Below are positions 4,274-47,507 of a stretch of DNA of 64,000 bases, in pieces; the first letter of the stretch is position 1, and each line of letters opens with the position of its first letter. The stretch is from NCBI GenBank assembly GCA_050008535.1, contig JBEKML010000001.1, forward strand, positions 130,246 to 194,245. The letters are read 5' to 3'. Source of the DNA: Minisyncoccia bacterium. GTDB taxonomy: Bacteria > Patescibacteriota > Minisyncoccia > UBA6257 > 2-01-FULL-56-20. A model generated the notes under the pieces. That model saw only the letters and a program-made list of their open reading frames with translations. It was not told the DNA's origin and searched no databases. The position numbers were made by a program, and so were the translations under genes.

Positions 4274-4312
4274 GAAAAAATGATAGCATCATCCGTGCGG
4301 GTTGAGAATATG

Positions 4313-4384
4313 TGGGCGCGGTAGGATTCGAACCTACAACCGGACGTGTATAAGACGTCTGCTCTGCCGTTGAGCTACGCGCCC
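4313..4384 (-). tRNA. tRNA with anticodon TAT (reads AUA; tRNA-Ile UAU type)
   Basis: Manual cloverleaf: acceptor GGGCGCG/CGCGCCC, D-stem GCTC/GAGC, anticodon stem GACGT/ACGTC with loop CTTATAC, T-arm GTAGG-TTCGAAT-CCTAC, discriminator A, no encoded CCA. Confidence 0.7.
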
Positions 4385-14941: not shown

Positions 14942-14966
14942 TGTTTTATTGATATAATGAATAGCA

Positions 14967-20460: not shown

Positions 20461-20488
20461 CAGCGCCTTTGCGCTATAATCTATATAA

Positions 20489-28676: not shown

Positions 28677-29576
28677 ATGGACGACGAAAACAAGGAGGAA
28701 GGTAAAATAGATTGGTTCAGCACCGAGGCGGTCACCATTTTCACCACCGCGTTCATTGGCGATGTTCTTTGTGTTCTGTTCTTGCCTCACTATATTGCCG
28801 GTGCCATGGCATATAGTTTTTTATGGCCGAAAACGCATGGCTTTCTGGCAAAAACGGTTCTCGTCATAGCATTTTTGATCCCCATTCCTTTTATCCTTTC
28901 TTTGGGCGCGTGGCTCGCGATATTCCTATCTAACAAGATCATCGCTGCTATCGCCACGCAGGTGGTGATCCAAGCCGTCGCAGCCGGCACGGGCGGCGCC
29001 GGAGAGGCACTTGAAGTGGGTGCCGTCGCCGCAGAAACAGCGGAGGTGGGGGCGGCAGCGGCCGAAGCAGGGGCGGCGGCGACAGAGGTTGGCGCGACAG
29101 CAGTAGAAACGGGGGCGGCGGCAGGCGGAACAACAGGAGCGGGCGCAGCAGCGGCAGAAACAGGAGGGGTGGCGGCAGAAGGGACCGAAGCAGCGGGAGC
29201 CGCCGGAGGAGGTGCCAGGGTCACGGGAGAGGGCGTAGGCGCAGGGGAAGGCGCAGGGGAAGGCGCTGCTGGAGAGGCTGGCGCACCCGAGGTGGAGCCA
29301 GAGGCACTTGGCGAAGAAAGAGAACCGATGGAAAAACTCGAAAAAGAACTTTTTAAGGAAACACCAAAAACAGAGGGTCCTGCCGAGGCTCCGGAAGAGG
29401 AGACGCCCCAAAAAGAGGAAACCGACGCCGAGAAAAAGACCCGCGAGGCTCGCGAAAGAGCTGAAAAGATTAAGGAATGGATGGATCGGCTCCGACCGAA
29501 GGAAGAGGAGGAAGAAGGCAAGGCGGAGGACGAAGAGGAAGAAAATGGCGGAGAAGATATGCCCTTGGCGGCATAA
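28677..29576 (+). CDS. Membrane protein with a long Ala/Gly/Glu/Thr low-complexity region and an acidic C-terminus
   Basis: N-terminal TM helices, then (A/G/E/T)n repeats encoded by GCN-rich DNA. The C-terminus is a Glu/Lys-rich tail. Confidence 0.4.
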   Translation: MDDENKEEGKIDWFSTEAVTIFTTAFIGDVLCVLFLPHYIAGAMAYSFLWPKTHGFLAKTVLVIAFLIPIPFILSLGAWLAIFLSNKIIAAIATQVVIQAVAAGTGGAGEALEVGAVAAETAEVGAAAAEAGAAATEVGATAVETGAAAGGTTGAGAAAAETGGVAAEGTEAAGAAGGGARVTGEGVGAGEGAGEGAAGEAGAPEVEPEALGEEREPMEKLEKELFKETPKTEGPAEAPEEETPQKEETDAEKKTREARERAEKIKEWMDRLRPKEEEEEGKAEDEEEENGGEDMPLAA

Positions 29577-30317: not shown

Positions 30318-30791
30318 ATGAACTTGTTCATTGCAATCGCTCATGCGGCGACCGTCAACCTCAACATCCCCGGGTCAAGCGTTCCCTCCGCCGACATCCC
30401 AGGCATTATTAGAAATATTTATGACTTCGCCCTTCTCGCCGCGGGCATCCTTGCCTTCGGGGCCATCGTCTGGGGCGGGATCAGGTATGCCACAGGGAAA
30501 GGGAATCCCTCATCGGAGACCGAAGGCAAGAGCTGGATCACGAACGCCCTCCTTGGGCTCCTGCTCCTGGTGGGCGCCTATATCGTCCTCTACACCATCA
30601 ATCCAGACATCGTCTCATTGCAGATAACGGGGGTCACGCCGCTTAGCGGGGCGCCAGCGGGGACCGCTGGCAACTCCGGCGCAGGGACGGGAGGGGGAGT
30701 AGCCAGTGGCCAATCGTGTCGTTTTGACAGAGACTGCGCATCGCTATCGTGCAAGCTTGATGTTAGTAAAGACGGATGGTATTGCAAATAA
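30318..30791 (+). CDS. VirB2/TrbC-like pilin candidate
   Basis: Signal sequence followed by two hydrophobic helices separated by a short polar loop (ALLAAGILAFGAIVWGG ... ALLGLLLLVGAYIVLY), the hallmark topology of T4SS pilins. Cys-containing C-terminal tail. Confidence 0.5.
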   Translation: MNLFIAIAHAATVNLNIPGSSVPSADIPGIIRNIYDFALLAAGILAFGAIVWGGIRYATGKGNPSSETEGKSWITNALLGLLLLVGAYIVLYTINPDIVSLQITGVTPLSGAPAGTAGNSGAGTGGGVASGQSCRFDRDCASLSCKLDVSKDGWYCK

Positions 30792-32046: not shown

Positions 32047-32487
32047 CTATAAGATCGGCTTGATGATCACGTACCGTTCCTTCCCTTCACCGACGGATTC
32101 CGTCGTCACCTCGGGATGGATCGCAAGCTCGACGTGCACGAGGCGCCGCTCATAAGAGTTCATTACCGGAAGCGGCACTTCGGCTTTTGTCGTGAGCGCC
32201 TTCTTCGCCGCCGCGCGCGCGAGCTCCATGATAAGATTTTCCCGTTCCTGCCGATAATTATTCACATCAAGAAAGATGAGGTCGATCGCATTTTTTTTGG
32301 CGATCATTTGGAATAAATGGTTTACGCTTTCTACGATGCTGGGAAGGTTCTCTTTAAGAAAGCCTCCGCCGTCGTAAATGAAAAGTGAACCGCGCTTTTC
32401 TTCCGGCTTGATCTCTATGTGGTAATCGCGGAATCCCATGAACTCAACGATGTTTTTCACGAGCGTCTCCCAGTTCTCCATTTTCAC
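32047..32487 (-). CDS. jag: Jag/KhpB-like RNA-binding protein (KH + R3H domains)
   Basis: C-terminal R3H motif MNSYERRLVHVELA. It sits downstream of yidC as in the canonical rnpA-yidC-jag operon. Confidence 0.75.
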   Translation of the reverse strand: MKMENWETLVKNIVEFMGFRDYHIEIKPEEKRGSLFIYDGGGFLKENLPSIVESVNHLFQMIAKKNAIDLIFLDVNNYRQERENLIMELARAAAKKALTTKAEVPLPVMNSYERRLVHVELAIHPEVTTESVGEGKERYVIIKPIL

Positions 32488-32563
32488 GTTACTATTCCAT
32501 ACTTCCGCCGCAAAATCAAGGACGGGACGGCGGATTTACTGGAAAACGTAACTCCCCGCGGGA

Positions 32564-35203
32564 TTAGTACGAATCGCAAGTATCCTGCCCTGCCGAAGTG
32601 TACGTTGGAGTGAACAGGCCCATTTGTTGTATGAGTGCCTTCATGGCGCTGTCCTGACTACCCCAAACAGCACAGTTAATGGGTTCCACTTGGATTTGCT
32701 TGGTGGTTACAGAAGACAGGGGGAGCTGATTTGTGATTATATTGGTTTGTGCAGCGGCCGGGACTGGCACAAGCGCATAATACTGGCCCGAACCCTGAGC
32801 CATAAACTGGTAGTCGGGAGTGTAGCACTCGCTCTGCCAATAGGTGACTGTCTGCACTTTCGGCGTGAGGCACGTCACGGTTACTTGGTGGGTTTCTGGA
32901 GCGACATAGGGAACCCATTTGGCGTTTACGCTGACCTTGATGGTAGAGGTTATGGCTGGCGAGGACGAGTCCTTGACTATAAATGAAGCCTGACCTCGCC
33001 CGACGCCGGTGATGCTGAGGTTCGTGCCGGAAAGGAGCACCGTTGCCACTCCTGCGCCCGGCGGGGTCGCCACACTATAAGGCGCCGTGCCAGCGATTAT
33101 GGCTATGTTAATCGTATCGTCAACCCTGATCACGGGATTTTGTTGTGAGATGGTCACTAAGCCCGGGCTGCTGACCGGACCACTTTCAGGGCAAACGGCT
33201 GTGGTGGGCACAAGATCCGTCGAGCGGCCCAGGGATCCGTCGTAGTTGGGATTGAACAATATGGGCGGGGTGGAGCGCGCTTTGGTCCACCACTCATGTA
33301 AGGTGTAGCGATAATCAACTGGGGGGAGTAGTGGATCGCCACCCTGCATGGTGTACACATCGTATTTAGTAGATGCTGGGGTGAGTTTGTAGAGGTTGTT
33401 CCACCCGGTTCCCAACGACTTACCTTTTATAAAATTATCAGCTTCTATTCTGGCGTATTGATCTATGCCTTCTTGGGTCGTATCTGGTCCGTAATTTATT
33501 ATGCTTCGCGCGTGGTCGTACACGGTCTGCCAGCTCAGGGTTTCTCCAAGTGCTTTCCCGCCATTAGCCACAATATCTGGGGTGGACGCCGCAGCGGTAG
33601 CCATCAATTGATAAGCTTGCTTTAGTAAAGTAGAGGCGGTGCATCGTTCCGGAGTGACGGTCCATTTGGTGACTTGGTCTATTTGTGTACATGCCCAAGG
33701 TTTGTCTGAGGGTACGGTACAGCTTCCGGCGGTTGGGGTAGGGATGGTTGAGCTAGTACTGCCTATTCTGGTTTGCATACCAGCCACGTTCTGTGAAATC
33801 CTGCTTATGGCCGGCGAAAAGAGGTCGGCGAGGTCGGACGCGGAAATGCCGTTCTGCTGCAACAGGGTCATCTGGCTTTGTATCTCCTGTAATTGCTGTG
33901 CGGACTCTTGAAGGATCGAGTCTAATGAGTTTTGAATTGCGTTAAGCGTGCTAGTTGACCCATATGGTGGGAGGGTAGTCCCACCGGCCTGGGCTTGGGT
34001 TAAAGTTTGTGGTTGTGCGTTGGCAGCCGTGGTGGCGGAATTTTGTATATTGGCCAAGTTTTGCGAAATCTGGTTTATGGCCGGCGAAAAGAGGTCGGCG
34101 AGGTCGGACGCGGAAATGCCGCTCTGCTGCAACAGGGTCATCTGGCTTTGTATTTCCTGCAGCTGCTGTGTGGATTCTTGAAGGACTTGATTCCATGAGG
34201 ATGAGGATTGGGTAGTGGCAAAAAACGGCGTAGAGCTCGATGTAGAAGTAACCACAGCGCCGGTTCCGCCGTTGTTTGATTGATTTTGGTTATATGCCGC
34301 CGGTGCCGGGGCATTGCAATGGTTGCTTATGTCATTTGGCACGACGTTCTGCCACGTCGAGGCAGTTACAAGGGCGTCTGTACCTATGGTCATGTCGCCA
34401 CAGGAAGTGTGCAGCGTGCAACTTAAATTGATGGTATAAGGAAGGCCCGTATTGAAATCCACGCCTATGGGCCCCATCCCCATCACTGCCGGTGCGCAAC
34501 TCACGTCATATCCCAAAGACCTTCCTATCCCCTCTGCAACCCGCGCCTCGTCGGCCGCCGCATAAAAGTTTGCGTGCTCGGGCGCGCACAGGCCGCCGGT
34601 TTCCGCTCCGGAACACACATTGATTCTCACATAACCGCCGTTGGGGCTGGGAACGAGACAGGTATTTGCGGAGGCATTATACGTATATGGAACGCATGCC
34701 GCTTGGGCCAGCGCAACGTCCGGGCGGCACATCGTGAAATTCGGGTTGGAAGGTGTCTCGTATCCCGTGCATGACGATGTGGAATTATACAATCCCGACG
34801 AATTCACCGTTACCTGGCCAGCAGGACATGACTCAGCCACGTCGCAGGGGGTATAGCTTGAAAGGTCGGCCTTGCACCCACGAAGCTGAATGGCGCAGCC
34901 GGGGACTGTTTTCTGGCACTTCAGGCTCTGGTTCCCGCCGCATTCGGTCGGATCAGGAGGGGGAGGAGGGGGAGGAGTTATTTTTTGGTCATCCGGACAG
35001 GTAGTGTTCAACATGCAACCGAATGGGCTCGTACAACCATTTATTTCCACCTTGCACCAATCGGCTTTTATGGTACAAGCCCGGGAGGCGTCCGAGCACA
35101 CGGCCCCTATTGCCGCATTCGCGGTCTCATATGAACGCATGACAACCGCAAAAAAGGCGACGACAACAACTAGCCCAACGGCAAAAAACAGATATTTTTT
35201 CAT
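32564..35203 (-). CDS. Giant Cys-rich secreted repeat protein (paralogue A)
   Basis: Signal anchor, a PPPPPPPDP linker, many Cys, and two tandem ~60-aa repeats of the form (QQLQEIQSQMTLLQQ[NS]GISASDLADLFSPAI..). Length is 879 aa. Confidence 0.7.
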   Translation of the reverse strand: MKKYLFFAVGLVVVVAFFAVVMRSYETANAAIGAVCSDASRACTIKADWCKVEINGCTSPFGCMLNTTCPDDQKITPPPPPPPDPTECGGNQSLKCQKTVPGCAIQLRGCKADLSSYTPCDVAESCPAGQVTVNSSGLYNSTSSCTGYETPSNPNFTMCRPDVALAQAACVPYTYNASANTCLVPSPNGGYVRINVCSGAETGGLCAPEHANFYAAADEARVAEGIGRSLGYDVSCAPAVMGMGPIGVDFNTGLPYTINLSCTLHTSCGDMTIGTDALVTASTWQNVVPNDISNHCNAPAPAAYNQNQSNNGGTGAVVTSTSSSTPFFATTQSSSSWNQVLQESTQQLQEIQSQMTLLQQSGISASDLADLFSPAINQISQNLANIQNSATTAANAQPQTLTQAQAGGTTLPPYGSTSTLNAIQNSLDSILQESAQQLQEIQSQMTLLQQNGISASDLADLFSPAISRISQNVAGMQTRIGSTSSTIPTPTAGSCTVPSDKPWACTQIDQVTKWTVTPERCTASTLLKQAYQLMATAAASTPDIVANGGKALGETLSWQTVYDHARSIINYGPDTTQEGIDQYARIEADNFIKGKSLGTGWNNLYKLTPASTKYDVYTMQGGDPLLPPVDYRYTLHEWWTKARSTPPILFNPNYDGSLGRSTDLVPTTAVCPESGPVSSPGLVTISQQNPVIRVDDTINIAIIAGTAPYSVATPPGAGVATVLLSGTNLSITGVGRGQASFIVKDSSSPAITSTIKVSVNAKWVPYVAPETHQVTVTCLTPKVQTVTYWQSECYTPDYQFMAQGSGQYYALVPVPAAAQTNIITNQLPLSSVTTKQIQVEPINCAVWGSQDSAMKALIQQMGLFTPTYTSAGQDTCDSY
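33750..34181. repeat. Tandem ~210-nt repeat pair inside paralogue A, near-identical to 36180-36609
   Basis: Antisense six-frame peptides ...LMAGEKRSARSDAEMPFCCNRVIWLCISCNCCADS recur at 33639-33911, 33948-34181, 36127-36342 and 36379-36609. Boundaries are approximate. Confidence 0.7.
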
Positions 35204-35246
35204 ACCTATAGTATATCACGTTGCCGCAAATCGTCGCCGCTACTTA

Positions 35247-37784
35247 TTACTGAACCTGAATATATCTGCCCGAAGAATTGCCGAACCACCTTACTCCTTC
35301 CCAAACCATCTGCCAGGTAAAGGGGAGATAGCCACTCAGACCAGAGGATGCGCTCGGGGCGGTAGCGGTAAAAACGAAAATTGCTGTTCCGCTGGGAGCC
35401 ACTTGATCTACCGGCAATTCCACCCGGCTTCCTAGGCCCCAATTGAGATTGCCGTAACCGGGGCTGATCGATTGGTAGCCCAAGCGATAGGGGTGCGCGT
35501 CATTTTTGACCCAGGTCGTCTGGCCGGTGTTTTTCACGACAACGGTGGCGGTGAATTGTTGCCCCGGAGAAGCAGTGGCGGGGACGGTAACGCTCTGGAT
35601 CAAGGCGTCGTTCGTCGGAGGAACTATACTAATGACGTTGGGGCTAGCGGATTGATAACCGATCCATTGGCGGTCGTTGAAATTCCCGGAAATTTCGTGT
35701 ATTAAAGTGAAGTTGGTCCCATTGTTACTCCCTAAAATCTGGTGAACGCCGCAGGTGTTATCGGAACCGCCCATCATCATTCTTACCTCCATGATGGGTT
35801 GCGAGGAGCCGAGATCAAGAGTGATCCATTGTGTGTAAGCGTGAGGGTTTGGAACGCCCGCCAGCACAACACATTTAGTTGGGGCGCCGTTGCTCCCCGA
35901 ATAAGCCCCATTCCATCCGGTGTAGATATCCCCATCGTAGGCATCTTGGGGTTTGCTCCCGCATCCTTGAGGGGTGCAATTCCACGAAGGAGTCCAGTTG
36001 GCAGAAGGGATCTGCCCGACCGTGCTGCTCACTATCGCAATTTTGCCGCTTGGCCCGTAGACCTCAATTTCCCGCCAATCAATCCATCCCGAATCCTCTG
36101 TGGTGTTTATTTTGATATAGCGGTATGTGCCAAGAGAGGTTGTGGTAGTTGTTGCTGCCGTTGAGGTGGGGGCGGTTGAGCTAGTGTTGCCGCTTACGTT
36201 GTTTTGTACGCCAGCCACGTTCTGTGAAATTCTGCTTATGGCCGGCGAAAAGAGGTCGGCGAGGTCGGATGCGGAAATGCCGTTCTGCTGCAATAGGGTC
36301 ATCTGGCTCTGTATCTCCTGTAATTGCTGCGCGGATTCTTGAAGGATCGCATCCGATGAACCCTGAATTGCGGCGAGCGTGCTGGATGATCCATATAGCG
36401 GGACGGTTCCTCCGGCTTGGGCTTGGGTTAGGGTTTGGGGCTGTGCGTTGGCGGCCGTAGTGGCGGAATTTTGTATATTGGCCAGGCTTTGCGAGATCTG
36501 GTTTATAGTCGGCGAAAAGAGGGCGGAGAGGTCGGCCCCGGAAATGCCGTTCTGCTGCAATAGGGTCATCTGGCTCTGTATCTCCTGTAATTGCTGCGCG
36601 GATTGTTGAAGGACCTGGCTCCACGAGGATGAGGATTGGGTGGTGGCAAGGGATGGCCCGGATGTTGCAGATGAGAGGTTGGATTGGTATTGATCCTTCG
36701 CAACAAATTTGTGGTAGTAAATCATATACTCATCCGAGGTCATTGGACCAATACCTGTCACGTTCGTCCACGTTCCTCCGGCATATGTCTGCGCCAGCGC
36801 CCCATATTGATTACCAAATGCGGTCCTCGCGGCACAAAGCCTGGTAATTTGATCCAGTGACATATCGGCCGTAATGTTTGTCCGTACGTCAATGCCGGTT
36901 GCCGCCAGGTATGCCGCGACGTCTTGCGCCAATTGAGCGCCGGTAGGGGGAGCGCCGGGGCCCACATACAACCACACTCCCGTCTGAGGATCCCTCGCCC
37001 AATTACTCATAGTGACATCTTCTAGAGACAGGCCGTCCTGTATTACGAGGTCTTTTGCATAAGTGTTGAGGGCGCTCCAGACCGTATCGTTGATTGGCAC
37101 CACTGAAATTGTTGAGGTGGCCACAGTGGCCGCAGGAGGAACGCTTTGCACCAAATGCAACACGTTGGTTTGGTACGTTGCCTCGGTCGGTACGAGTGCG
37201 TAGTATGGCGAATCGAACGGTGTCGGTGATTGGCCGGCAGCTAGTGCGTAGAATCGATAATCTGGGGTAAAACACTGCGTCCCGAACATAAGGTTGGATG
37301 GTTGGTACGGGGTAACGCATGCCACTGTTGTGTTGGTTATATTGGCTGCGTTGGCCGATGCCGGAGAATTAGCCGAGTTCGGGGTGGACGTCACTGTAAA
37401 GCTAATCTGGCTCGATGCACTACTATTGGAAAGGTTAACGGACTCAACCCAAGAGCCGATGTCCGCGGACCGAAACGAGCCGGTAAGGGTCCAATTCCCG
37501 TTCGCATCTGTCGTCCCAAAGTTGGCAGTACAACTTGGATATTGGGTATTGTTTTGATTGGCGCAGAAGGTGAAAGAGGTGCGGCTCGGACCCGAAACCC
37601 GCAGGTTCCAAGCGTCGCCGACGGAGAACGCGGCCGTTGTCGCATAGTTGATGGTGAGGCTCACGTTGGTCGCGGCATTAGCGACCATCACGCCGCACAA
37701 TCCCACAAGCGCGGCGATTACGACCGCAGCGACCAGCCCCGAACCAAACAAGGGGTGTTTTTTCATAACTTTATTATACACCAC
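35247..37784 (-). CDS. Giant secreted repeat protein with C-terminal discoidin (F5/8 type C)-like and Ig-like domains (paralogue B)
   Basis: Signal peptide, the same two tandem repeats as paralogue A, then AYDGDIYTGWNG...QWITLDLGSSQPIMEVRMMMGG (discoidin-like) and an NBR1/Ig-like TVVVKNTGQTTW segment. Length is 845 aa. Confidence 0.7.
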   Translation of the reverse strand: MVYNKVMKKHPLFGSGLVAAVVIAALVGLCGVMVANAATNVSLTINYATTAAFSVGDAWNLRVSGPSRTSFTFCANQNNTQYPSCTANFGTTDANGNWTLTGSFRSADIGSWVESVNLSNSSASSQISFTVTSTPNSANSPASANAANITNTTVACVTPYQPSNLMFGTQCFTPDYRFYALAAGQSPTPFDSPYYALVPTEATYQTNVLHLVQSVPPAATVATSTISVVPINDTVWSALNTYAKDLVIQDGLSLEDVTMSNWARDPQTGVWLYVGPGAPPTGAQLAQDVAAYLAATGIDVRTNITADMSLDQITRLCAARTAFGNQYGALAQTYAGGTWTNVTGIGPMTSDEYMIYYHKFVAKDQYQSNLSSATSGPSLATTQSSSSWSQVLQQSAQQLQEIQSQMTLLQQNGISGADLSALFSPTINQISQSLANIQNSATTAANAQPQTLTQAQAGGTVPLYGSSSTLAAIQGSSDAILQESAQQLQEIQSQMTLLQQNGISASDLADLFSPAISRISQNVAGVQNNVSGNTSSTAPTSTAATTTTTSLGTYRYIKINTTEDSGWIDWREIEVYGPSGKIAIVSSTVGQIPSANWTPSWNCTPQGCGSKPQDAYDGDIYTGWNGAYSGSNGAPTKCVVLAGVPNPHAYTQWITLDLGSSQPIMEVRMMMGGSDNTCGVHQILGSNNGTNFTLIHEISGNFNDRQWIGYQSASPNVISIVPPTNDALIQSVTVPATASPGQQFTATVVVKNTGQTTWVKNDAHPYRLGYQSISPGYGNLNWGLGSRVELPVDQVAPSGTAIFVFTATAPSASSGLSGYLPFTWQMVWEGVRWFGNSSGRYIQVQ
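36180..36609. repeat. Tandem ~210-nt repeat pair inside paralogue B (copy of 33750-34181)
   Basis: Same evidence as above. Boundaries are approximate. Confidence 0.7.
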
Positions 37785-37818: not shown

Positions 37819-38538
37819 TTAAATTGCCGCAACTTCTCCCTTTTTAAAATGCTTGTTGATGACAACTTGTTGGAGTATTGAGAAAAGCGACGTAACGAGC
37901 CAGTAGAGGCCCACGGCGGCGGGCAAGTTGTAGAAAATAAAGATGGTGATAATGGGGCCTATAAAGGTCATCTGCCGCGCCATTTTTTCAGTAGAGGAGA
38001 GTGGGGCGGTACGATCGGGGTTTTGATAAATAGCAAGGCGTGCCTGAAAATATTGGGCGACCGCTGCGAGGAGAATGAGGATAATGCTTGGTTTTGCAAG
38101 GTTAATAAGGCCGAGGAAAAGCGGATTTATGGTTTGTGGTTGTGGGATAAAGGAATAAAGTCCCTGGAGCTCGCCGGGGGTGAGGCCGGAACGCACTACC
38201 CAATAGAGCGCGATCATAATCGGTAGTTGGACAATAATAAGAAAGATGCTTGAGAATGGATTTACGCCGTGCTCTTTGTAAAGTTCCATCAGCGCCTGTG
38301 CTTGTTTTTCTTTGTCGTTTTTATGTGTTTCTTGGATCTTTTTGATCTTTGGCTGGATGCGCTGCATCGCCATTTGTTGTTTGGTGCTTTTATGGAAAAG
38401 CGGATAGAGGATAAGTCGGATAAGAATGGTGACAAGAATAACCGCGATCCCGAAGTCCCGGAACGCGATCGTCCCATAAAAATAAACAAGGATGTTTAAA
38501 ATGGGTTGGTAGAAAATAACTTGGTAGAGGTAGGTCAT
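37819..38538 (-). CDS. yidC: Membrane protein insertase YidC/Oxa1 family (short form)
   Basis: A 239-aa protein with five TM helices and conserved YidC core motifs (LPIMIALYWV, GLYWLVTSLFSILQQ). Confidence 0.9.
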   Translation of the reverse strand: MTYLYQVIFYQPILNILVYFYGTIAFRDFGIAVILVTILIRLILYPLFHKSTKQQMAMQRIQPKIKKIQETHKNDKEKQAQALMELYKEHGVNPFSSIFLIIVQLPIMIALYWVVRSGLTPGELQGLYSFIPQPQTINPLFLGLINLAKPSIILILLAAVAQYFQARLAIYQNPDRTAPLSSTEKMARQMTFIGPIITIFIFYNLPAAVGLYWLVTSLFSILQQVVINKHFKKGEVAAI

Positions 38539-39047
38539 TTTTTTATATCTTTACTTTTCCCGATTGTTTCCAAAAGCAACGTTCTAAATTGTTTTTTTTT
38601 AAGCGAACTTGTTTTGGAAGACACCACAAGAAGAAAATCTTTTCCCGCCCCTGCGTCATGGACGGTCTGAAATACTGCTCTTGCTTGTCGTTTCAAAAAA
38701 TTTCTTTTCACTGCGTTTTTATTGGCAGCCGTTCCCACAACAATCCCTATTCTATTTCTCGCCTTGTGGTTTTCTTTTGTCTTTAATAAAAAATAGGGCG
38801 TCGCCACCGTCTGCCGCCAACCCGAACGGAATTCCTGACTTGGCAGCCGCGACGGTTTTAAAAGCATCACAAAAGAGTGTATTTCTCCCCGCTTCAGACG
38901 ACCAACCGGCGCCTTTTTTTTGTTCTTCGGCGCGCGAGCACTCGGCGGCCACCGGGCGAACGTTGCCTTTTTAGAAATCCATGCGTCCGTTTGCGTTTTT
39001 TCTTTTTGGGATTGTAGGTAAACGACATCTTGAGGATTGTAGCACAC
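38535..39047 (-). CDS. rnpA: Ribonuclease P protein component; long ORF whose 5' third overlaps rpmH out of frame
   Basis: The conserved RnpA segment [12 protein letters not shown]...[11 protein letters not shown]...[15 protein letters not shown] is present. The only in-frame ATG upstream of the conserved RLKR motif is at 39047. Alternative internal starts (GTG/ATG at 38870/38867) would remove that motif. The stop overlaps the yidC start. Confidence 0.75.
38894..39028 (-). CDS. rpmH: 50S ribosomal protein L34
   Basis: Hand translation gives [44 protein letters not shown] (44 aa), a good L34 match. This ORF is absent from the supplied track because it is under 60 aa. Confidence 0.85.
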
Positions 39048-39091
39048 GAATTTGGAGTGTGCTAGTTTTTTATGTGTTGTTTATTAAGTGG

Positions 39092-39111
39092 TTATACACA
39101 TACCATCCACA
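39092..39111. promoter_or_regulatory. DnaA-box-like sequences (TTATACACA at 39092-39100 and cCATCCACA at 39103-39111) upstream of dnaA
   Basis: Compared by eye with the consensus TTATCCACA. They lie in the rpmH-dnaA intergenic region. Confidence 0.45.
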
Positions 39112-39175
39112 AATCATTTGATTTGACTCTTTGACGCGCCAGGCGTAAGAGTTAATAATAAACAGAACAACAATC

Positions 39176-40528
39176 ATGGATCTCGAAAAGCTTTGGCAAT
39201 CAACATTGGGGGAGATGGAGATCCAGCTCACAAAGGCTAATTTCTCGATGTGGCTGAAGGATAGCCGGCTTGTGGACAGAAAGGATGGCACGTTTTACGT
39301 TGCCTTGCCGAGTAATTTTGCGAAAACATGGATCGAAGATAAGTACTACAAGAATATTCTGGGAATTTTGCGGAATGCGGATAGTTCGGTTAAAAAAATC
39401 GAGTTTGTAATCAACCCCCAGGACGCGGTGCCCCAAAAGAATATTGCGGGAATAAAAGACTTTGGAAAAATTGATTCGGCGGAGCTTGAGTTCAGCGGCG
39501 TGGATCCAATAACCAATCTCAATCCGCACTACACCCTCTCCTCGTTTGTGGTGGGTTCCTCAAATGAGCTTGCCTTCGCGGCCGCAAAGGCAATCACCGA
39601 AGAAATCGGGAAGTACAACCCCTTCTTTGTGTATGGCGGCGTTGGATTGGGAAAGACACACCTTATACAGGCGGTGGGAAATGAGATTTTTTCAAAATAC
39701 CAAAAAAAAGTAAGGCCCAAATATGTTCCCTCGGAACAATTTACCCGCGAGGTGGTTTGGGGGCTGCGGAATGACCGCATAGAAAGTGTAAAAAAGAAAT
39801 ATCGGGATGTAGATGTGTTGATAATCGACGACATTCAATTCATTGGTGGAAAAGAAAAAACCGAGGAAGAGTTTTTCCACACTTTTAATGCGCTGTATGA
39901 AAATAACAAACAGATCATTATTTCCTCCGACCGACCACCACAATCACTTCCTACACTTGAAGAACGCCTGCGGTCGCGCTTTGAGGGTGGTTTTGTGGCT
40001 GATATCGGCTACCCGGAGTACGAGATGCGGGTAGCCATCATCCGCAACAAGCTTTCTTTGGCCCGGCGCGAGCTGAGCGAGGAGATAATTGACCTTCTTG
40101 CGCGGCGGCTCAGAAAGAACATCCGTGAGCTTGAGGGGGTGCTCAAAAAACTCCTTTTCCTACAGGAACAAAAACAAACCGAGCTTACTAAGGCGGCAGT
40201 GGAGGAGCTCATAGAGAAATCAACTAAAAATCTATCAAAGCGGGTGAATGATGCCCAGATATTGAAAGCGGTCGCTGAATTCTTTGGCGTTTCAATTGAG
40301 GACATCATAAGCCACAACAGGAGGAAGGAGGTTGTTGAGCCGCGCCAGATCGCAATGTACTTACTTCGGGAAATCTCCGAGCTTTCTTACCCATATATTG
40401 GGGAGAAGATGGGGAGGGACCACACCACCGCCATCCACTCATACGAGAAGATCAACCAGGAAATCAACAGAAGTCCCGCGTTTAACCAAAAGATATTAAC
40501 AATAAAAGATATCATTTATAAAAGCTAG
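39176..40528 (+). CDS. dnaA: Chromosomal replication initiator protein DnaA
   Basis: AAA+ domain with GGVGLGKTHL and a C-terminal DNA-binding domain (IAMYLLREISELSYPYIGEKMGRDHTT). Confidence 0.95.
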   Translation: MDLEKLWQSTLGEMEIQLTKANFSMWLKDSRLVDRKDGTFYVALPSNFAKTWIEDKYYKNILGILRNADSSVKKIEFVINPQDAVPQKNIAGIKDFGKIDSAELEFSGVDPITNLNPHYTLSSFVVGSSNELAFAAAKAITEEIGKYNPFFVYGGVGLGKTHLIQAVGNEIFSKYQKKVRPKYVPSEQFTREVVWGLRNDRIESVKKKYRDVDVLIIDDIQFIGGKEKTEEEFFHTFNALYENNKQIIISSDRPPQSLPTLEERLRSRFEGGFVADIGYPEYEMRVAIIRNKLSLARRELSEEIIDLLARRLRKNIRELEGVLKKLLFLQEQKQTELTKAAVEELIEKSTKNLSKRVNDAQILKAVAEFFGVSIEDIISHNRRKEVVEPRQIAMYLLREISELSYPYIGEKMGRDHTTAIHSYEKINQEINRSPAFNQKILTIKDIIYKS

Positions 40529-40545
40529 ATAAGGAAAAAACAACC

Positions 40546-40554
40546 ATATCCACA
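40546..40554. promoter_or_regulatory. DnaA box aTATCCACA followed by a ~55-nt AT-rich tract (candidate oriC/DNA-unwinding element) between dnaA and dnaN
   Basis: One mismatch to TTATCCACA. The tract at 40555-40612 is more than 80% A+T. Confidence 0.5.
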
Positions 40555-40612
40555 AATTAAATCTTTATTAATAACAACAATAAGATTTTAATAAACTATT
40601 AATACTACTCTT

Positions 40613-41725
40613 ATGAAATTTGTTGCGATCCGATCAAACATCAAAGAAGCTGTTTCAATCACCGAGCGGGTGATTGGGGAAAACCTCAACCTCCCCATTC
40701 TTAAAAATGTTCTTATTGAAACCGGGAATGAGGGAATTACTTTTACCACCACAAATCTTGAGCTCGCAATCACTTGTTTTGTTTCAGGAAAGGTGATTGA
40801 GGGTGGGAAAGTGACCGTCCCACTCCCGCTTTTTTCAAACCTTATCACCAACCTTCAAACCGACCGGTTAAATTTCAGCAAAAAAAACAACACCCTTGAG
40901 GTCAAAACGGATAATTATACGGCGATCCTCCAGGGGCTTCCCGCGGAGGATTTCCCCATAACCCCCAAAATAAAAAACCCAAACGAAAACCTGACCATAA
41001 AAAGCGCTCTTCTCAAAGAAGGGATCCAACAAACCATTGTAGCGTCGCAATTTTCCGACCTCCGTCCCGAGCTGAACGTCATCCTTTTTGATTTTTCCCT
41101 TGATACTCTCCGGCTGGTCGCAACGGACGGCTTCCGTCTTGCGGAGAAATCCATCCCGCAAAACTTTTTCACCTCAAATTATAAAGAACCATTCAAGGTT
41201 TTAATTCCTTTAAAAACCGCCCAAGAGGTCCTTCGGATGTCGAAAGACGAGGAGATGGTAAAGATCTTCCGCGACGAAAACCAAATTCTATTTAAAACCG
41301 AGCGTGCAGAACTTATTTCCCGCCTCACCGAAGGAAACTTCCCCGATTATTCACCGATCATTCCTAAAAAATTTACTACGGAAGTGATAGCGAACAAGGA
41401 AGAGTTTTCAAATGCAGTAAGGCTGGCCGGGATTTTTGGGCAGAAAAACAGCGAAGCAAAAATTATAGTGCGCCAAGATAAAAAAACAATGGAAGTAAGT
41501 TCGGCGGACCAGGTGCTTGGCGAGAACTCATACCTCCTACCCGCGAAGATCAAAGGGGAACCCATAGAGGCGTTCTTCAACTGGCGGTATCTCACCGACC
41601 CACTAAAAGCGATAAAAACAGAAGAGATATTCGTTGGCTTCCAGGAGGAGAACAACCCGGCGCTCCTCCGGCCCATGGGAGATAATTCGTACTTCTACAT
41701 TTTAAAACCCATCCTCAAGTCCTAG
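40613..41725 (+). CDS. dnaN: DNA polymerase III beta sliding clamp
   Basis: A 370-aa protein with three-domain clamp architecture and the conserved N-terminus MKFVAIRSNIKEAV. Confidence 0.9.
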   Translation: MKFVAIRSNIKEAVSITERVIGENLNLPILKNVLIETGNEGITFTTTNLELAITCFVSGKVIEGGKVTVPLPLFSNLITNLQTDRLNFSKKNNTLEVKTDNYTAILQGLPAEDFPITPKIKNPNENLTIKSALLKEGIQQTIVASQFSDLRPELNVILFDFSLDTLRLVATDGFRLAEKSIPQNFFTSNYKEPFKVLIPLKTAQEVLRMSKDEEMVKIFRDENQILFKTERAELISRLTEGNFPDYSPIIPKKFTTEVIANKEEFSNAVRLAGIFGQKNSEAKIIVRQDKKTMEVSSADQVLGENSYLLPAKIKGEPIEAFFNWRYLTDPLKAIKTEEIFVGFQEENNPALLRPMGDNSYFYILKPILKS

Positions 41726-44184
41726 TGATAGACAACAACACTGCTTACCCCTGCGTTTCCTGATGCGCCGGAGGCTTGTATTTCAAGAAGGTTTTGTCCA
41801 TTGATCGACCGCGGGGAGAACGACCAGGAAAAAACATAATTCGTTCCAAAAGACCCGGAGAAATCCTGCGCTACAATACCATTCCAACGCACGGTTATTT
41901 TGGTCATCGGCTCTATAGCGGTTAACTTCGCGGATATATTCACGACGCCCGTTATAAAATAACCCGGCGAAGGATTGTTGATGGTGATCTGTGGGGGATT
42001 ATAAGAAAGAGGCATCTGCGGCGCAGACACGGAGACGGGCTGGTTGTAGTCTTTAAAATTCGCCATATTCTCCGAAGCCCAGGCCAAAAGATCGGTTTCC
42101 CAATTGTGAAATTGCGAATCGGCATCGGGGTTTGTGGGCGGCGGGCCGTCCGGATTATTTTTATCCACATAATAGAGGATGGTATGGAGCTGGTTGTTGT
42201 AAAGATAGTTGCCGGCGAGGATCGGCTTCGTCGGGTTTGTGGGATCCGGTCGCGCGAATGTTCCGGTCGGTTGGTTTGTAAGCGCCTGTTGCATGAACGC
42301 ATGCCAGGTCGGGATCGCCGCAAGGATGCTTGAGCCGTTTCGCTGCATGGCGGTGTCGTCATTATTTCCCGCCCAGACGCCAACCACAAAAGAGGGCGTG
42401 TAACCAATCGCCCATGCGTCTTTATAGTCATTTGAAGTTCCTGTTTTAAGCGCCACATCGTACCCCGGGAAAACGGTAAGGTTTAAGCTGTTCTGGAAAA
42501 GCCCACTCCGGGCATTCGTATCTGAGAGAATGTTATTAACAAGACGGACGGACTGCGGGTCGGCGACTTGCACTGATTGGTCGGTATAGGATTCAAGGGT
42601 GTTGCCGTTAGAATCTTTCACTTGAAGGATTATGGCCTGGCTATGTTTTACTCCATCCTGAGAAAGCGTCGAATACGCCTCCACGAGGTCGGCAAGCCGC
42701 ACGGCGCCGCCGCCGAGGACGAGCGAGAGGCCGTAGGTATCGGGGCTTGTGAGCGTGGTAAGCCCGAAATTATAAGCATTCTCGACGGCGTTTTTAATGC
42801 CGACAAGATAAAGCGTTTCCACGGCGGGGACGTTGACTGATTGCGCAAGCGCGTTTCGCATCGACATCGGCCCCTGAAACCCCTCTTCAAAATCCTGGGG
42901 GTGGAAGCATTGCTGGTTATTGTTATTGAAATCGGGGATGGCCGGACAGGATGGATACGTACTGAACTCCGTAGGGACGTCAAAGAGCGTCGTGTCGGGC
43001 GTATATCCTTTTTGGAACGCGGTGAGGTATACAAATGGTTTAAGCGCCGATCCCGGTTGCCGGAGCCCTTGGGTGGCGACGTTGAAGTTCGGTTCGAATT
43101 TACAATTTAATCCGGGCGTACAGCCGACGGGAAGCGACGAGGTTGCGAAATAATCCCGCGAACCCACCATGGCGAGCACCTGCCCGGTTTTGGGATCCTG
43201 CGCCACAAGTGCCGCGTTATAACCCTGATAAAGTTTCTGGTTTTGTGCAGCACCTTGTTCCACCGCCGCCTCCGCTTCTTGCTGCAGGTTCCAATCGAGC
43301 GTTGTGATCACCCTAAGGCCGCCGCGGTTGGCCAGGTTTTCGCCGTATTTTTGAACAAGATAATCTTGCACCGCCATCACGAAATGCGGCGCTTTGATGG
43401 TGCCCGTCGACTGCGGCTGGAATATTATTTTATATGCCAACGCCTCATTCAGTTGATTTTTTGTGATCTTCCCCAGCGCATACATCTTTTGGAGCACGAG
43501 CCTTTGCCGTTTAAGAAGATCGTTCACGTGGCCGCCCCAGGGAGAATAGTAGGTTGGTGCCTGGGGAACTGCGGCAAGGAGCGCACTTTGTGCAAGGTTG
43601 AGGCTCTGGACGGGTTTATCAAAATACGCCTCGCTTGCCTCCTCAACGCCCGCGATCGTTGATCCATAAGAAACCTCATTAAGATAAAGACCGAGTATTT
43701 CGTTCTTGGAATAATATTCATTGAGCCTGATCGCAAGGATAAGCTCTTTTATCTTTCGCGAGACGGTTTGGTTGAGCGTGAGGAATGCGGTCCGCGCGAG
43801 TTGCTGGGTGATGGTGGACCCGCCCTGCGCGAGCGATCCGGAGGTGACGTCCACATAAAGCGCCCGCAGGATCCCTTTCCAGTCGAACGCCGGTTCGTTA
43901 TAAAAATTTTCATCTTCAATCGAAACCGTTGCATCTTTCAGGGCTTGCGGGATTTGATCAAAGGGGACCACTGTCCTCCGCTCGCCGGAACTGATCTCAT
44001 AAAGAAGGACGGTCCCCGTGCGGTCATAGATCTTTGTGGACTGGCTGATTTGTTGGTTCGATATTTCCTCGATGGAAGGGAGTGTTTTTATGAAAAAGAG
44101 GATGATAAGGAAAAAGACGATAAATCCCGCCGCCACCGCGATGCCAAAAATCTGGAACGATCGCACTATGCTTCTTTTTCGCAT
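41722..44184 (-). CDS. Bifunctional class A penicillin-binding protein (glycosyltransferase + transpeptidase, PBP1A-like)
   Basis: N-terminal TM helix, the GT51 motif QGGSTITQQLAR, the transpeptidase motifs SALKPF (SxxK) and KTGTSND (KTG), and a C-terminal extension. Confidence 0.9.
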   Translation of the reverse strand: MRKRSIVRSFQIFGIAVAAGFIVFFLIILFFIKTLPSIEEISNQQISQSTKIYDRTGTVLLYEISSGERRTVVPFDQIPQALKDATVSIEDENFYNEPAFDWKGILRALYVDVTSGSLAQGGSTITQQLARTAFLTLNQTVSRKIKELILAIRLNEYYSKNEILGLYLNEVSYGSTIAGVEEASEAYFDKPVQSLNLAQSALLAAVPQAPTYYSPWGGHVNDLLKRQRLVLQKMYALGKITKNQLNEALAYKIIFQPQSTGTIKAPHFVMAVQDYLVQKYGENLANRGGLRVITTLDWNLQQEAEAAVEQGAAQNQKLYQGYNAALVAQDPKTGQVLAMVGSRDYFATSSLPVGCTPGLNCKFEPNFNVATQGLRQPGSALKPFVYLTAFQKGYTPDTTLFDVPTEFSTYPSCPAIPDFNNNNQQCFHPQDFEEGFQGPMSMRNALAQSVNVPAVETLYLVGIKNAVENAYNFGLTTLTSPDTYGLSLVLGGGAVRLADLVEAYSTLSQDGVKHSQAIILQVKDSNGNTLESYTDQSVQVADPQSVRLVNNILSDTNARSGLFQNSLNLTVFPGYDVALKTGTSNDYKDAWAIGYTPSFVVGVWAGNNDDTAMQRNGSSILAAIPTWHAFMQQALTNQPTGTFARPDPTNPTKPILAGNYLYNNQLHTILYYVDKNNPDGPPPTNPDADSQFHNWETDLLAWASENMANFKDYNQPVSVSAPQMPLSYNPPQITINNPSPGYFITGVVNISAKLTAIEPMTKITVRWNGIVAQDFSGSFGTNYVFSWSFSPRSINGQNLLEIQASGASGNAGVSSVVVYH

Positions 44185-47273: not shown

Positions 47274-47507
47274 CTGGCTCAAACCTGGGGGCAAATTCCT
47301 CGCGAAAGGAAGTTAAACCCTTTTATCAAAAGATAGAAGGGACTAGAATTACTCAAAGGAGAGAACCAGCCGGAACCGGTTCATCCTGAAAAATTTAGAA
47401 ATAATTCCCGCCCCCAGATTTGAATCAACTACCGACAATGGTAATGTTAGCATATAATAACGGCCTTGTCAAGGGGGTGGGGAAAGAGTCCCTTTTGTAG
47501 GGTTACT

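Follow-up and report, generated by a model that had tools for sequence, protein, structure and literature searches.

How ultrasmall episymbionts recognize their hosts is poorly understood. Genome-reduced bacteria such as Mycoplasma possess with P1/MgpB a recombining adhesin family with repeat elements, and large secreted proteins restricted to one lineage are frequent in Patescibacteria. A cultivated patescibacterium was reported to require several adhesins and a type IV secretion system (T4SS) for its epibiotic growth (PMC10633639). T4SS clusters of Patescibacteria are located near dnaA, dnaN, rnpA, rpmH, and ksgA, and homologs of the adhesin PrgB were not found in this group (PMC12102498). 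Here, we describe a locus in a stretch of 64,000 nucleotides from a Minisyncoccia bacterium (GenBank assembly GCA_050008535.1, contig JBEKML010000001.1, positions 130,246 to 194,245 of the forward strand; hereafter the window, to which all coordinates refer unless another contig is named), in which 5.2 kb between yidC and jag encode two large proteins of 839 and 879 amino acids. We consider it rather probable that they represent a tandem, lineage-specific pair of Sec-exported, adhesin-like mosaic proteins, which was recently inserted, which carries putative promoters of its own, and for which the location next to yidC is incidental. The closest public genomes are metagenome-assembled genomes of the Paceibacteria/Minisyncoccia type, several of them from peat or wetland.

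On the minus strand, on which all features lie unless stated otherwise, the genes follow each other in the order rpmH, rnpA, yidC, 839-residue protein, 879-residue protein, and jag, with spacers of 52 nt between yidC and the first inserted gene, 43 nt between the two inserted genes and ~80 nt in front of jag. An earlier inspection of the DNA without database searches (the sequence-only reading) had described two large open reading frames (ORFs) of the same orientation between yidC and jag, and both were recovered at 32564-35203 and 35247-37784 by the ORF list, gene calls and domain searches. The length of 845 residues given there for one of the proteins applies to the ORF as it starts with GTG at 37784, whereas the likelier start is the ATG at 37766 (the choice of the gene callers; six metagenome contigs), which yields a gene at 35247..37766 and a protein of 839 residues; the 879-residue protein is encoded at 32564..35203. 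Having a size of ~90 kDa, the proteins are not as giant as they had been called. Six independent metagenome contigs carry the locus with 99.85-100% identity, one of them with 100% (22,169 nt taken from a 496-kb contig).

That these genes interrupt an otherwise contiguous gene pair is borne out by a survey in which one genome per species was scanned with YidC, covering 18 related species with YidC proteins of 61-82% identity. Sixteen of these species have jag directly next to yidC, less than ~170 nt away. The two remaining species, L008 and L017, carry unrelated inserts at this site: in L008 (900-2407 of that contig; 1.5 kb) a 222-residue ORF on the opposite strand and a 134-residue ORF lie in the gap, and in L017 (10718-11646; 1.0 kb) it holds a 274-residue acidic ORF without a signal peptide. 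The yidC-jag gap, which accepted three unrelated insertions, seems to have served repeatedly as a landing site. Close homologs of both proteins were found only in the same population and at one further locus, L006, of which Jag is 73% identical. Upstream of jag, L006 contains a related gene that consists of a single ORF of at least 796 residues running off the contig end, and this ORF joins the N-terminal half of the 839-residue protein, one repeat and the C-terminal half of the 879-residue protein. It would be either the product expected from recombination across a cassette shared by the two genes or an assembly collapse.

More distant homologs are encoded in other surroundings. The closest full-length homolog of the 839-residue protein, P0038, shows its full architecture (58% and 49% identity; the helical region differs) and is encoded in another genome between adk-map and rpsL-rpsG-fusA, and P0092, which combines the 8-cysteine (8-Cys) domain described below with a discoidin-like sequence, is encoded between nusA and rpmB/rpsL. 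Because homologs occur in these contexts and relatives lack the insert, the family appears to be positionally mobile, and the occupation of the yidC-jag site appears to be recent and confined to one narrow lineage. As to the searches, full-length word-indexed searches were swamped by low-complexity candidates and gave only P0001 and P0002, and a search with the C-terminal region added P0004, a C-terminal fragment of the 839-residue type. Downstream of P0004, on L088 (1281-1433), lies an ORF with a signal peptide (MKRALGLLCFMACIVVFPFLAHA...) that is unlike the 879-residue protein; tandem secreted-protein genes may recur in this group. The contigs of P0019, P0011, and P0030 are too short for an informative gene context.

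Both proteins begin with MKK followed by 19-23 hydrophobic residues and ANA|A, and this is the only hydrophobic segment in each of them as judged by a heuristic sequence check. In the 839-residue protein the signal-like peptide (MKKHPLFGSGLVAAVVIAALVGLCGVMVANA|A) is encoded at 37674..37766, and P0038 contains an equivalent segment. By this check, the signal peptides noticed in the sequence-only reading show the basic N-region, hydrophobic core, and AXA site of a cleavable Sec signal, and both products look like Sec-exported modular proteins. They have an isoelectric point of 4.7, are rich in Ser, Thr, and Ala, and contain many Cys residues. In the 839-residue protein the signal-like peptide is followed by an immunoglobulin (Ig)-like N-terminal domain, module A, a middle region, a helical cassette, a discoidin-like domain and an NBR1-like Ig domain. 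The 879-residue protein continues after its signal-like peptide with two 6-Cys mini-modules around a polyproline run, an 8-Cys alpha/beta domain, the helical cassette, a middle domain of unknown type, a Big_2-like Ig domain, and finally module A. Here, 22 of the 30 Cys residues are located within residues 36-296 and the run reads PPPPPPP, so that the earlier description of one protein as Cys-rich with a polyproline linker is confirmed.

The helical cassette is the part which most closely connects the two genes. It consists of two repeats, R1 and R2, and was delimited by sequence comparison at 36157..36649 in the 839-residue protein gene, where a low-confidence model was available as well, and at 33729..34221 in the 879-residue protein gene. 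Between the genes 133 of 161 amino acids are identical (83%), and the DNA is 85% identical over 496 nt with sharp borders immediately outside of which the identity collapses. The repeat comprises 244 nt with 267-270 nt from start to start, and R1 and R2 are 64% identical within a gene. The sequence-only reading was right in seeing a pair of repeats common to both proteins, as two copies are present in each gene, but the unit is ~80-90 residues long rather than ~60. The synonymous divergence (dS) of the cassette between the genes is 0.51 and the nonsynonymous divergence (dN) 0.079, resulting in a dN/dS ratio of 0.15, which decreases to 0.05 in the core of R2. This low ratio indicates that the protein sequence of the cassette is constrained in both genes, and the cassette appears neither freshly converted nor in decay. 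Very recent gene conversion was considered as a cause of the cassette similarity and was rejected on account of dS values of 0.3-0.6 between the copies. Judged by the constraint on the cassette, the homologs in other organisms and the near-identical locus on six contigs, both genes look functional. Each repeat is predicted to form a helix-turn-helix hairpin with helices at residues 380-405, 410-439, 461-494, and 499-528 of the 839-residue protein; the underlying single-sequence AlphaFold2 model of the whole protein is of low confidence (pLDDT, the predicted local distance difference test score, of 38) and unfit for a fold search, and the repeat helices were kept as a weak hint.

Module A, a segment of ~100 residues, is the second element present in both proteins. 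Sequence comparison places it at residues 148-252 of the 839-residue protein (37011..37325; pattern C..C.TPDY.F...YYALVP...PIN..VW) and at the C-terminus of the 879-residue protein (residues ~770-865; 32609..32896), where HMMER matches cover residues 761-864. With 39% identity between the two proteins, the sharing of module A is by sequence divergence much older than that of the cassette. Module A is also present in P0038 and P0056.

The C-terminus of the 839-residue protein had been described as discoidin/F5-8 type C-like and Ig-like, and this assignment holds through its homologs. The discoidin-like domain (residues ~545-710; 35637..36134) matches PF00754, F5_F8_type_C, with 27.0 bits (E 5e-6) at a Pfam gathering cut-off of 28.2 bits, and the NBR1-like Ig domain (residues ~720-839; 35250..35609) matches PF16158, N_BRCA1_IG, with 18.5 bits at a cut-off of 28 bits. 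The homolog P0004 (50% identical) exceeds both cut-offs with 29.5 and 56 bits, respectively, and P0038 (49% identical) exceeds that of F5_F8_type_C with 31.4 bits and reaches 23 bits for N_BRCA1_IG. Because these homologs pass the cut-offs, the reading as discoidin followed by NBR1-like Ig is sound. With the 879-residue protein as query, HMMER was run exhaustively against 1.84 billion representatives and yielded 95 matches, which were sorted by domain. Most of them fall on residues 680-762 (32918..33166), the Big_2/PF13629-like Ig domain assigned by these matches to Ig-repeat proteins, and many of the matched proteins carry 3-17 tandem copies. Four of the matches to this region were checked and carry PF13629, two of those also Big_2 and one NUP210-Ig; residues 670-775 themselves gave no Pfam match at E<=1.

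The 8-Cys alpha/beta domain of the 879-residue protein (residues 132-300; 34304..34810) is characterized by the pattern SGCTG[FY]E..C.PEW...RVN.YAA...GY..SC and was modeled with a pLDDT of 82. Neither a Pfam relative nor a structural relative in the PDB was found, and PDB sequences searched with an 8-Cys profile gave no match. The domain, matched over residues ~140-290 in the HMMER search, occurs in roughly 14 proteins without any Pfam assignment, nearly all of which start with MKK and a hydrophobic N-terminus. It is paired with discoidin-like sequence in P0045 and P0092 and with a domain resembling the N-terminus of the 839-residue protein in P0095, and other members carry helical repeats of their own. 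Since modules are recombined in this manner among the members of the family, both window proteins can be understood as mosaics assembled from a common pool of extracellular modules. Searches of Pfam, NCBIfam, PHROGs, and PDB sequences with the 879-residue protein as a whole remained without a match; PDB sequence searches with both proteins returned nothing, and NCBIfam and PHROGs returned nothing useful. Weak Pfam matches to FYRC, the H-NS N-terminal domain, and COP9 on Q-rich helices were judged to be compositional noise.

Promoter-like sequences are found directly in front of both inserted genes. A TATAAT box (37773..37778) ends 6 nt before the ATG of the 839-residue protein gene and a TATACT box (35210..35215) ends 6 nt before that of the 879-residue protein gene; both are putative promoters, the former of a leaderless or near-leaderless mRNA. 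The TACAAT box of rpmH starts 13 nt before its ATG. In the window, 12 of 35 start codons are preceded by a TATAAT-like hexamer (at least 5 of 6 matching positions) that begins 15-11 nt before them, where ~0.5 would be expected from background, and these 12 starts include rpmH and both inserted genes and do not include rnpA or yidC. Further boxes of this kind are located for example at 1236-1241, 14953-14958, 20475-20480, and 47453-47458, several of the hexamers have a TTGAC-like -35 element, and Shine-Dalgarno motifs are nearly absent across the window. The geometry of the boxes suggests that leaderless or near-leaderless mRNAs are widespread in this organism.

A promoter-like element is also present in front of jag (32491..32519), composed of TTGATT, a 17-nt stretch ending with TGG (extended -10 type), and AATAGT, followed by 9 nt to the ATG at 32481. 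In the window it sits downstream of the stop codon of the 879-residue protein gene. Besides the window, L006 and 12 of the 18 related species contain the exact pattern, with 7-11 nt allowed to the ATG, and near-variants were recognized by eye in the other six. Jag apparently possesses a conserved promoter of its own, and in this lineage it probably forms a unit separate from rnpA-yidC. As the insert follows the end of yidC and precedes the jag element, it probably occupies a transcription-unit boundary, which would explain why three independent insertions were tolerated at this position. A riboswitch, small RNA or tRNA was looked for at the insertion site and none was found.

Taken together, the pair is best explained as extracellular binding proteins that an episymbiont has acquired or expanded not long ago. 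The scenario that we propose would comprise two tandem genes in one lineage of an uncultivated, Paceibacteria/Minisyncoccia-like patescibacterium from peat, which presumably encode exported proteins built of modules that secreted proteins of related bacteria contain in different combinations, i.e., Ig-like domains, the lectin-type discoidin domain, the 8-Cys alpha/beta domain, module A, and the helical-hairpin cassette. The cassette, under purifying selection, would probably serve as a stalk or oligomerization element and may at the same time allow the two genes to recombine with each other. The pair would have been inserted recently between the yidC stop codon and the jag promoter-like element, a probable unit boundary, and each gene would be transcribed independently from a putative promoter close to its start codon. 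The position itself may be a permissive landing site that possibly gains from origin-proximal gene dosage and would imply no functional tie to YidC. A role as adhesins or in host interaction can reasonably be inferred, because adhesins would be expected to contain such parts as Ig-like spacers, a discoidin domain of the lectin type, heads rich in disulfides, and a helical module under constraint.

Several observations weigh against this explanation. Neither protein shows a lipobox, an SLH domain, an anchor to the cell wall or a membrane segment at its C-terminus: an LPXTG sortase signal was looked for and is absent, the C-termini ...AGQDTCDSY and ...SSGRYIQVQ contain no hydrophobic segment, the sequence LVGLCG of the 839-residue protein has Leu at position -1 of a would-be lipobox, and the signal region of the 879-residue protein contains no Cys. 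Since no anchor-type feature was seen, the sequences do not account for an attachment to the surface. About half of each protein has no recognizable domain, which leaves room for an enzymatic or toxic role, and the 839-residue protein itself scores below the cut-offs of PF00754 and PF16158. The hybrid gene of L006 could reflect an assembly collapse across the repeat. The assignment of promoters derives from motif position only, and a two-hexamer scan did not call these sites; with no terminator-like site found between the genes of the locus, read-through from rpmH-rnpA-yidC may occur.

The sequence-only reading had taken the placement after yidC as a hint to co-expression with YidC. A functional coupling, in which both proteins are co-transcribed in an rpmH-rnpA-yidC-jag operon and exported or inserted in an insertase-dependent manner, would agree with the common strand, the short spacers, the lack of terminator-like sites and an arrangement that is kept at least on the jag side in L006. 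However, homologs occur elsewhere and yidC and jag are contiguous in most relatives: 16 of the 18 carry no insertion at all, none of the 18 species has related genes at this position, which only L006 shares, and P0038 (at map/rpsL) and P0092 are encoded in other contexts. Moreover, the boxes before both ATGs and the conserved jag element argue against one obligate unit from rpmH to jag, and proteins whose large soluble domains are exported by a cleavable-type signal are typically substrates of Sec rather than of YidC alone. The idea of co-expression is thus not upheld, and coupling to YidC is very unlikely; the conserved gene order rnpA-yidC-jag on the origin side need not be one operon, and adjacency to yidC should not be read as functional linkage. 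Another neighbor that has to be considered is a T4SS-like cluster (VirB4/TraG-P-loop, TraC-like, PrgI, and T4SS pilin genes) on the plus strand, which converges on jag and ends only ~0.5 kb from the pair, on the far side of jag. Both proteins could act as contact adhesins of this machine in a PrgB-like role, and it fits this idea that T4SS clusters near origin genes were described for Patescibacteria in which no PrgB-like adhesin was found (PMC12102498). The inserted genes are, however, on the opposite strand and cut off from the cluster by jag, L008 retains pilin-side cluster genes beside jag without these proteins whereas L006 has those genes together with the hybrid gene (two loci inspected), and P0038 and P0092 have no T4SS genes within 6-10 kb, so that we judge such a role to be distinctly unlikely.

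Instead of adhesins, the two proteins might be envelope-building or enzymatic secreted proteins, such as S-layer-like proteins, wall hydrolases or host-directed toxins. Residues 31-135 and 490-675 of the 879-residue protein and residues 252-370 of the 839-residue protein contain no assignable domain, a PDB relative of the 8-Cys domain is not known, and the two proteins share with many envelope proteins an acidic character and a high content of Ser and Thr. Against this, no catalytic or S-layer family was matched in Pfam, NCBIfam, PHROGs or PDB sequences, the domains that can be recognized are all of binding or spacer types, and the very narrow distribution speaks against a core envelope component, which makes this alternative unlikely in our view. 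An origin as cargo of a phage or mobile element, for example as tail-fiber-like receptor-binding proteins, is still harder to reconcile with the locus and appears highly improbable. It is true that phage receptor-binding proteins often contain Ig-like, discoidin, and helical stalk modules and that the yidC-jag site was hit independently in L008 and L017, but PHROGs gave no match at E<=0.01, the insertion site is not accompanied by an integrase gene, a tRNA or flanking repeats, the G+C content of the insert (51-55%) is that of most of the window, and N-terminal Sec-type signals would be unexpected in virion proteins. As a further possibility, the 8-Cys domain may be an undescribed fold that forms, together with module A and the cassette, a Patescibacteria-wide toolkit of interchangeable extracellular parts, in which the cassette would be both a co-assembly element and the site at which binding heads are reshuffled between neighboring genes, for which the L006 hybrid would be an instance. 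We put this forward tentatively and regard it as unlikely; if it were true, episymbionts could switch their host specificity quickly.

The pair lies in origin-proximal surroundings. The housekeeping unit is headed by rpmH (38894..39028; ribosomal protein L34, 44 residues, recognized from its translation), followed by rnpA (38535..38867; RNase P protein of 110 residues from the ATG at 38867; PF00825 with 51.4 bits; gene calls), which overlaps the start of yidC by 4 nt, and by yidC (37819..38538), encoding a short membrane insertase of 239 residues (PF02096 with 168 bits). Beyond the insert, jag (32047..32481) encodes an R3H-domain protein with 144 residues from the ATG at 32481 or 146 residues from a GTG at 32487 (PF01424 with 57.6 bits; gene calls). 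The genes dnaA and dnaN are located on the plus strand and diverge from the rpmH-side genes. This origin-proximal neighborhood including the T4SS cluster agrees with that described for Paceibacteria (PMC12102498). The region 38001-42000, which includes most of yidC as well as rnpA, rpmH, dnaA, and dnaN, has a G+C content of 44-47% compared to 50-59% nearly everywhere else in the window, and the minimum of the cumulative GC skew lies at ~28-32 kb, several kb from dnaA. Two contigs of the same population, L001 and L004, which are elsewhere at least 99.9% identical, part from the window inside the T4SS-like cluster between 29255 and 30441: L001 breaks at 30441 within the pilin gene, and SBP_bac_1 and gyrA genes replace VirB4, TraC, and PrgI, and L004 breaks at 29255. 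This divergence is either a strain-level rearrangement of the T4SS region or due to chimeric assemblies. The cluster also encodes, at 28677-29576 on the plus strand, a protein of 299 residues with an N-terminal membrane region, a long low-complexity tract enriched in Ala, Gly, and Glu, and a tail that is acidic and rich in Lys; this protein is conserved in L008 (311 residues) and gave no match in a Pfam search. Finally, ARAGORN called a tRNA-Ile with the anticodon UAU (tat) at 4312-4384 on the minus strand. In most bacteria AUA is read by a lysidine-modified CAU tRNA, and the UAU tRNA-Ile may point to a different strategy of AUA decoding.

It is not surprising that one pair of large secreted-protein genes has landed between housekeeping genes of a compact genome, and the findings do not change current concepts. 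Their value is mainly that of a lead for the surface biology of Patescibacteria, as both proteins are concrete candidates for host recognition; by-products are the uncharacterized 8-Cys family, an apparent example of module exchange between neighboring surface-protein genes and the probable split between rnpA-yidC and jag. Among described proteins, bacterial discoidin proteins (PF00754/PF22633) with NBR1-/CARDB-like Ig domains show the same domain order as the C-terminal 300 residues of the 839-residue protein, P0004, and P0038. The 839-residue protein differs from them by scores just under the cut-offs, by having neither a glycoside hydrolase nor another catalytic domain attached and by an N-terminal two-thirds that is unrelated to any described family. 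Modular adhesins of the PrgB type from Gram-positive bacteria have in common with the window proteins a signal peptide, a binding head, a stalk, Ig-like domains, and a nearby monoderm-type T4SS, whereas LPXTG, a wall-binding domain, and sequence similarity are missing in the window proteins. Compared to P1/MgpB of Mycoplasma, only two copies exist, an archive of silent cassettes is lacking, variation was not observed among the six contigs of the same population, and dS values of 0.3-0.6 between the cassette copies speak against frequent ongoing conversion; nevertheless, both cases unite a reduced genome with surface proteins whose shared internal repeats permit recombination between paralogs, and L006 carries the hybrid that would be expected from it. 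Closest in biology are the adhesins of Southlakia epibionticum, which were identified in epibiotic growth by transposon sequencing (PMC10633639). Southlakia belongs to another class, Saccharimonadia (Saccharibacteria), and the window proteins are known from their genes alone; yet both share the phylum-level group and the presumed lifestyle, and the Southlakia adhesins are likewise secreted or located at the surface, belong to sequence families that are for the most part unknown, and occur alongside a T4SS and type IV pili.

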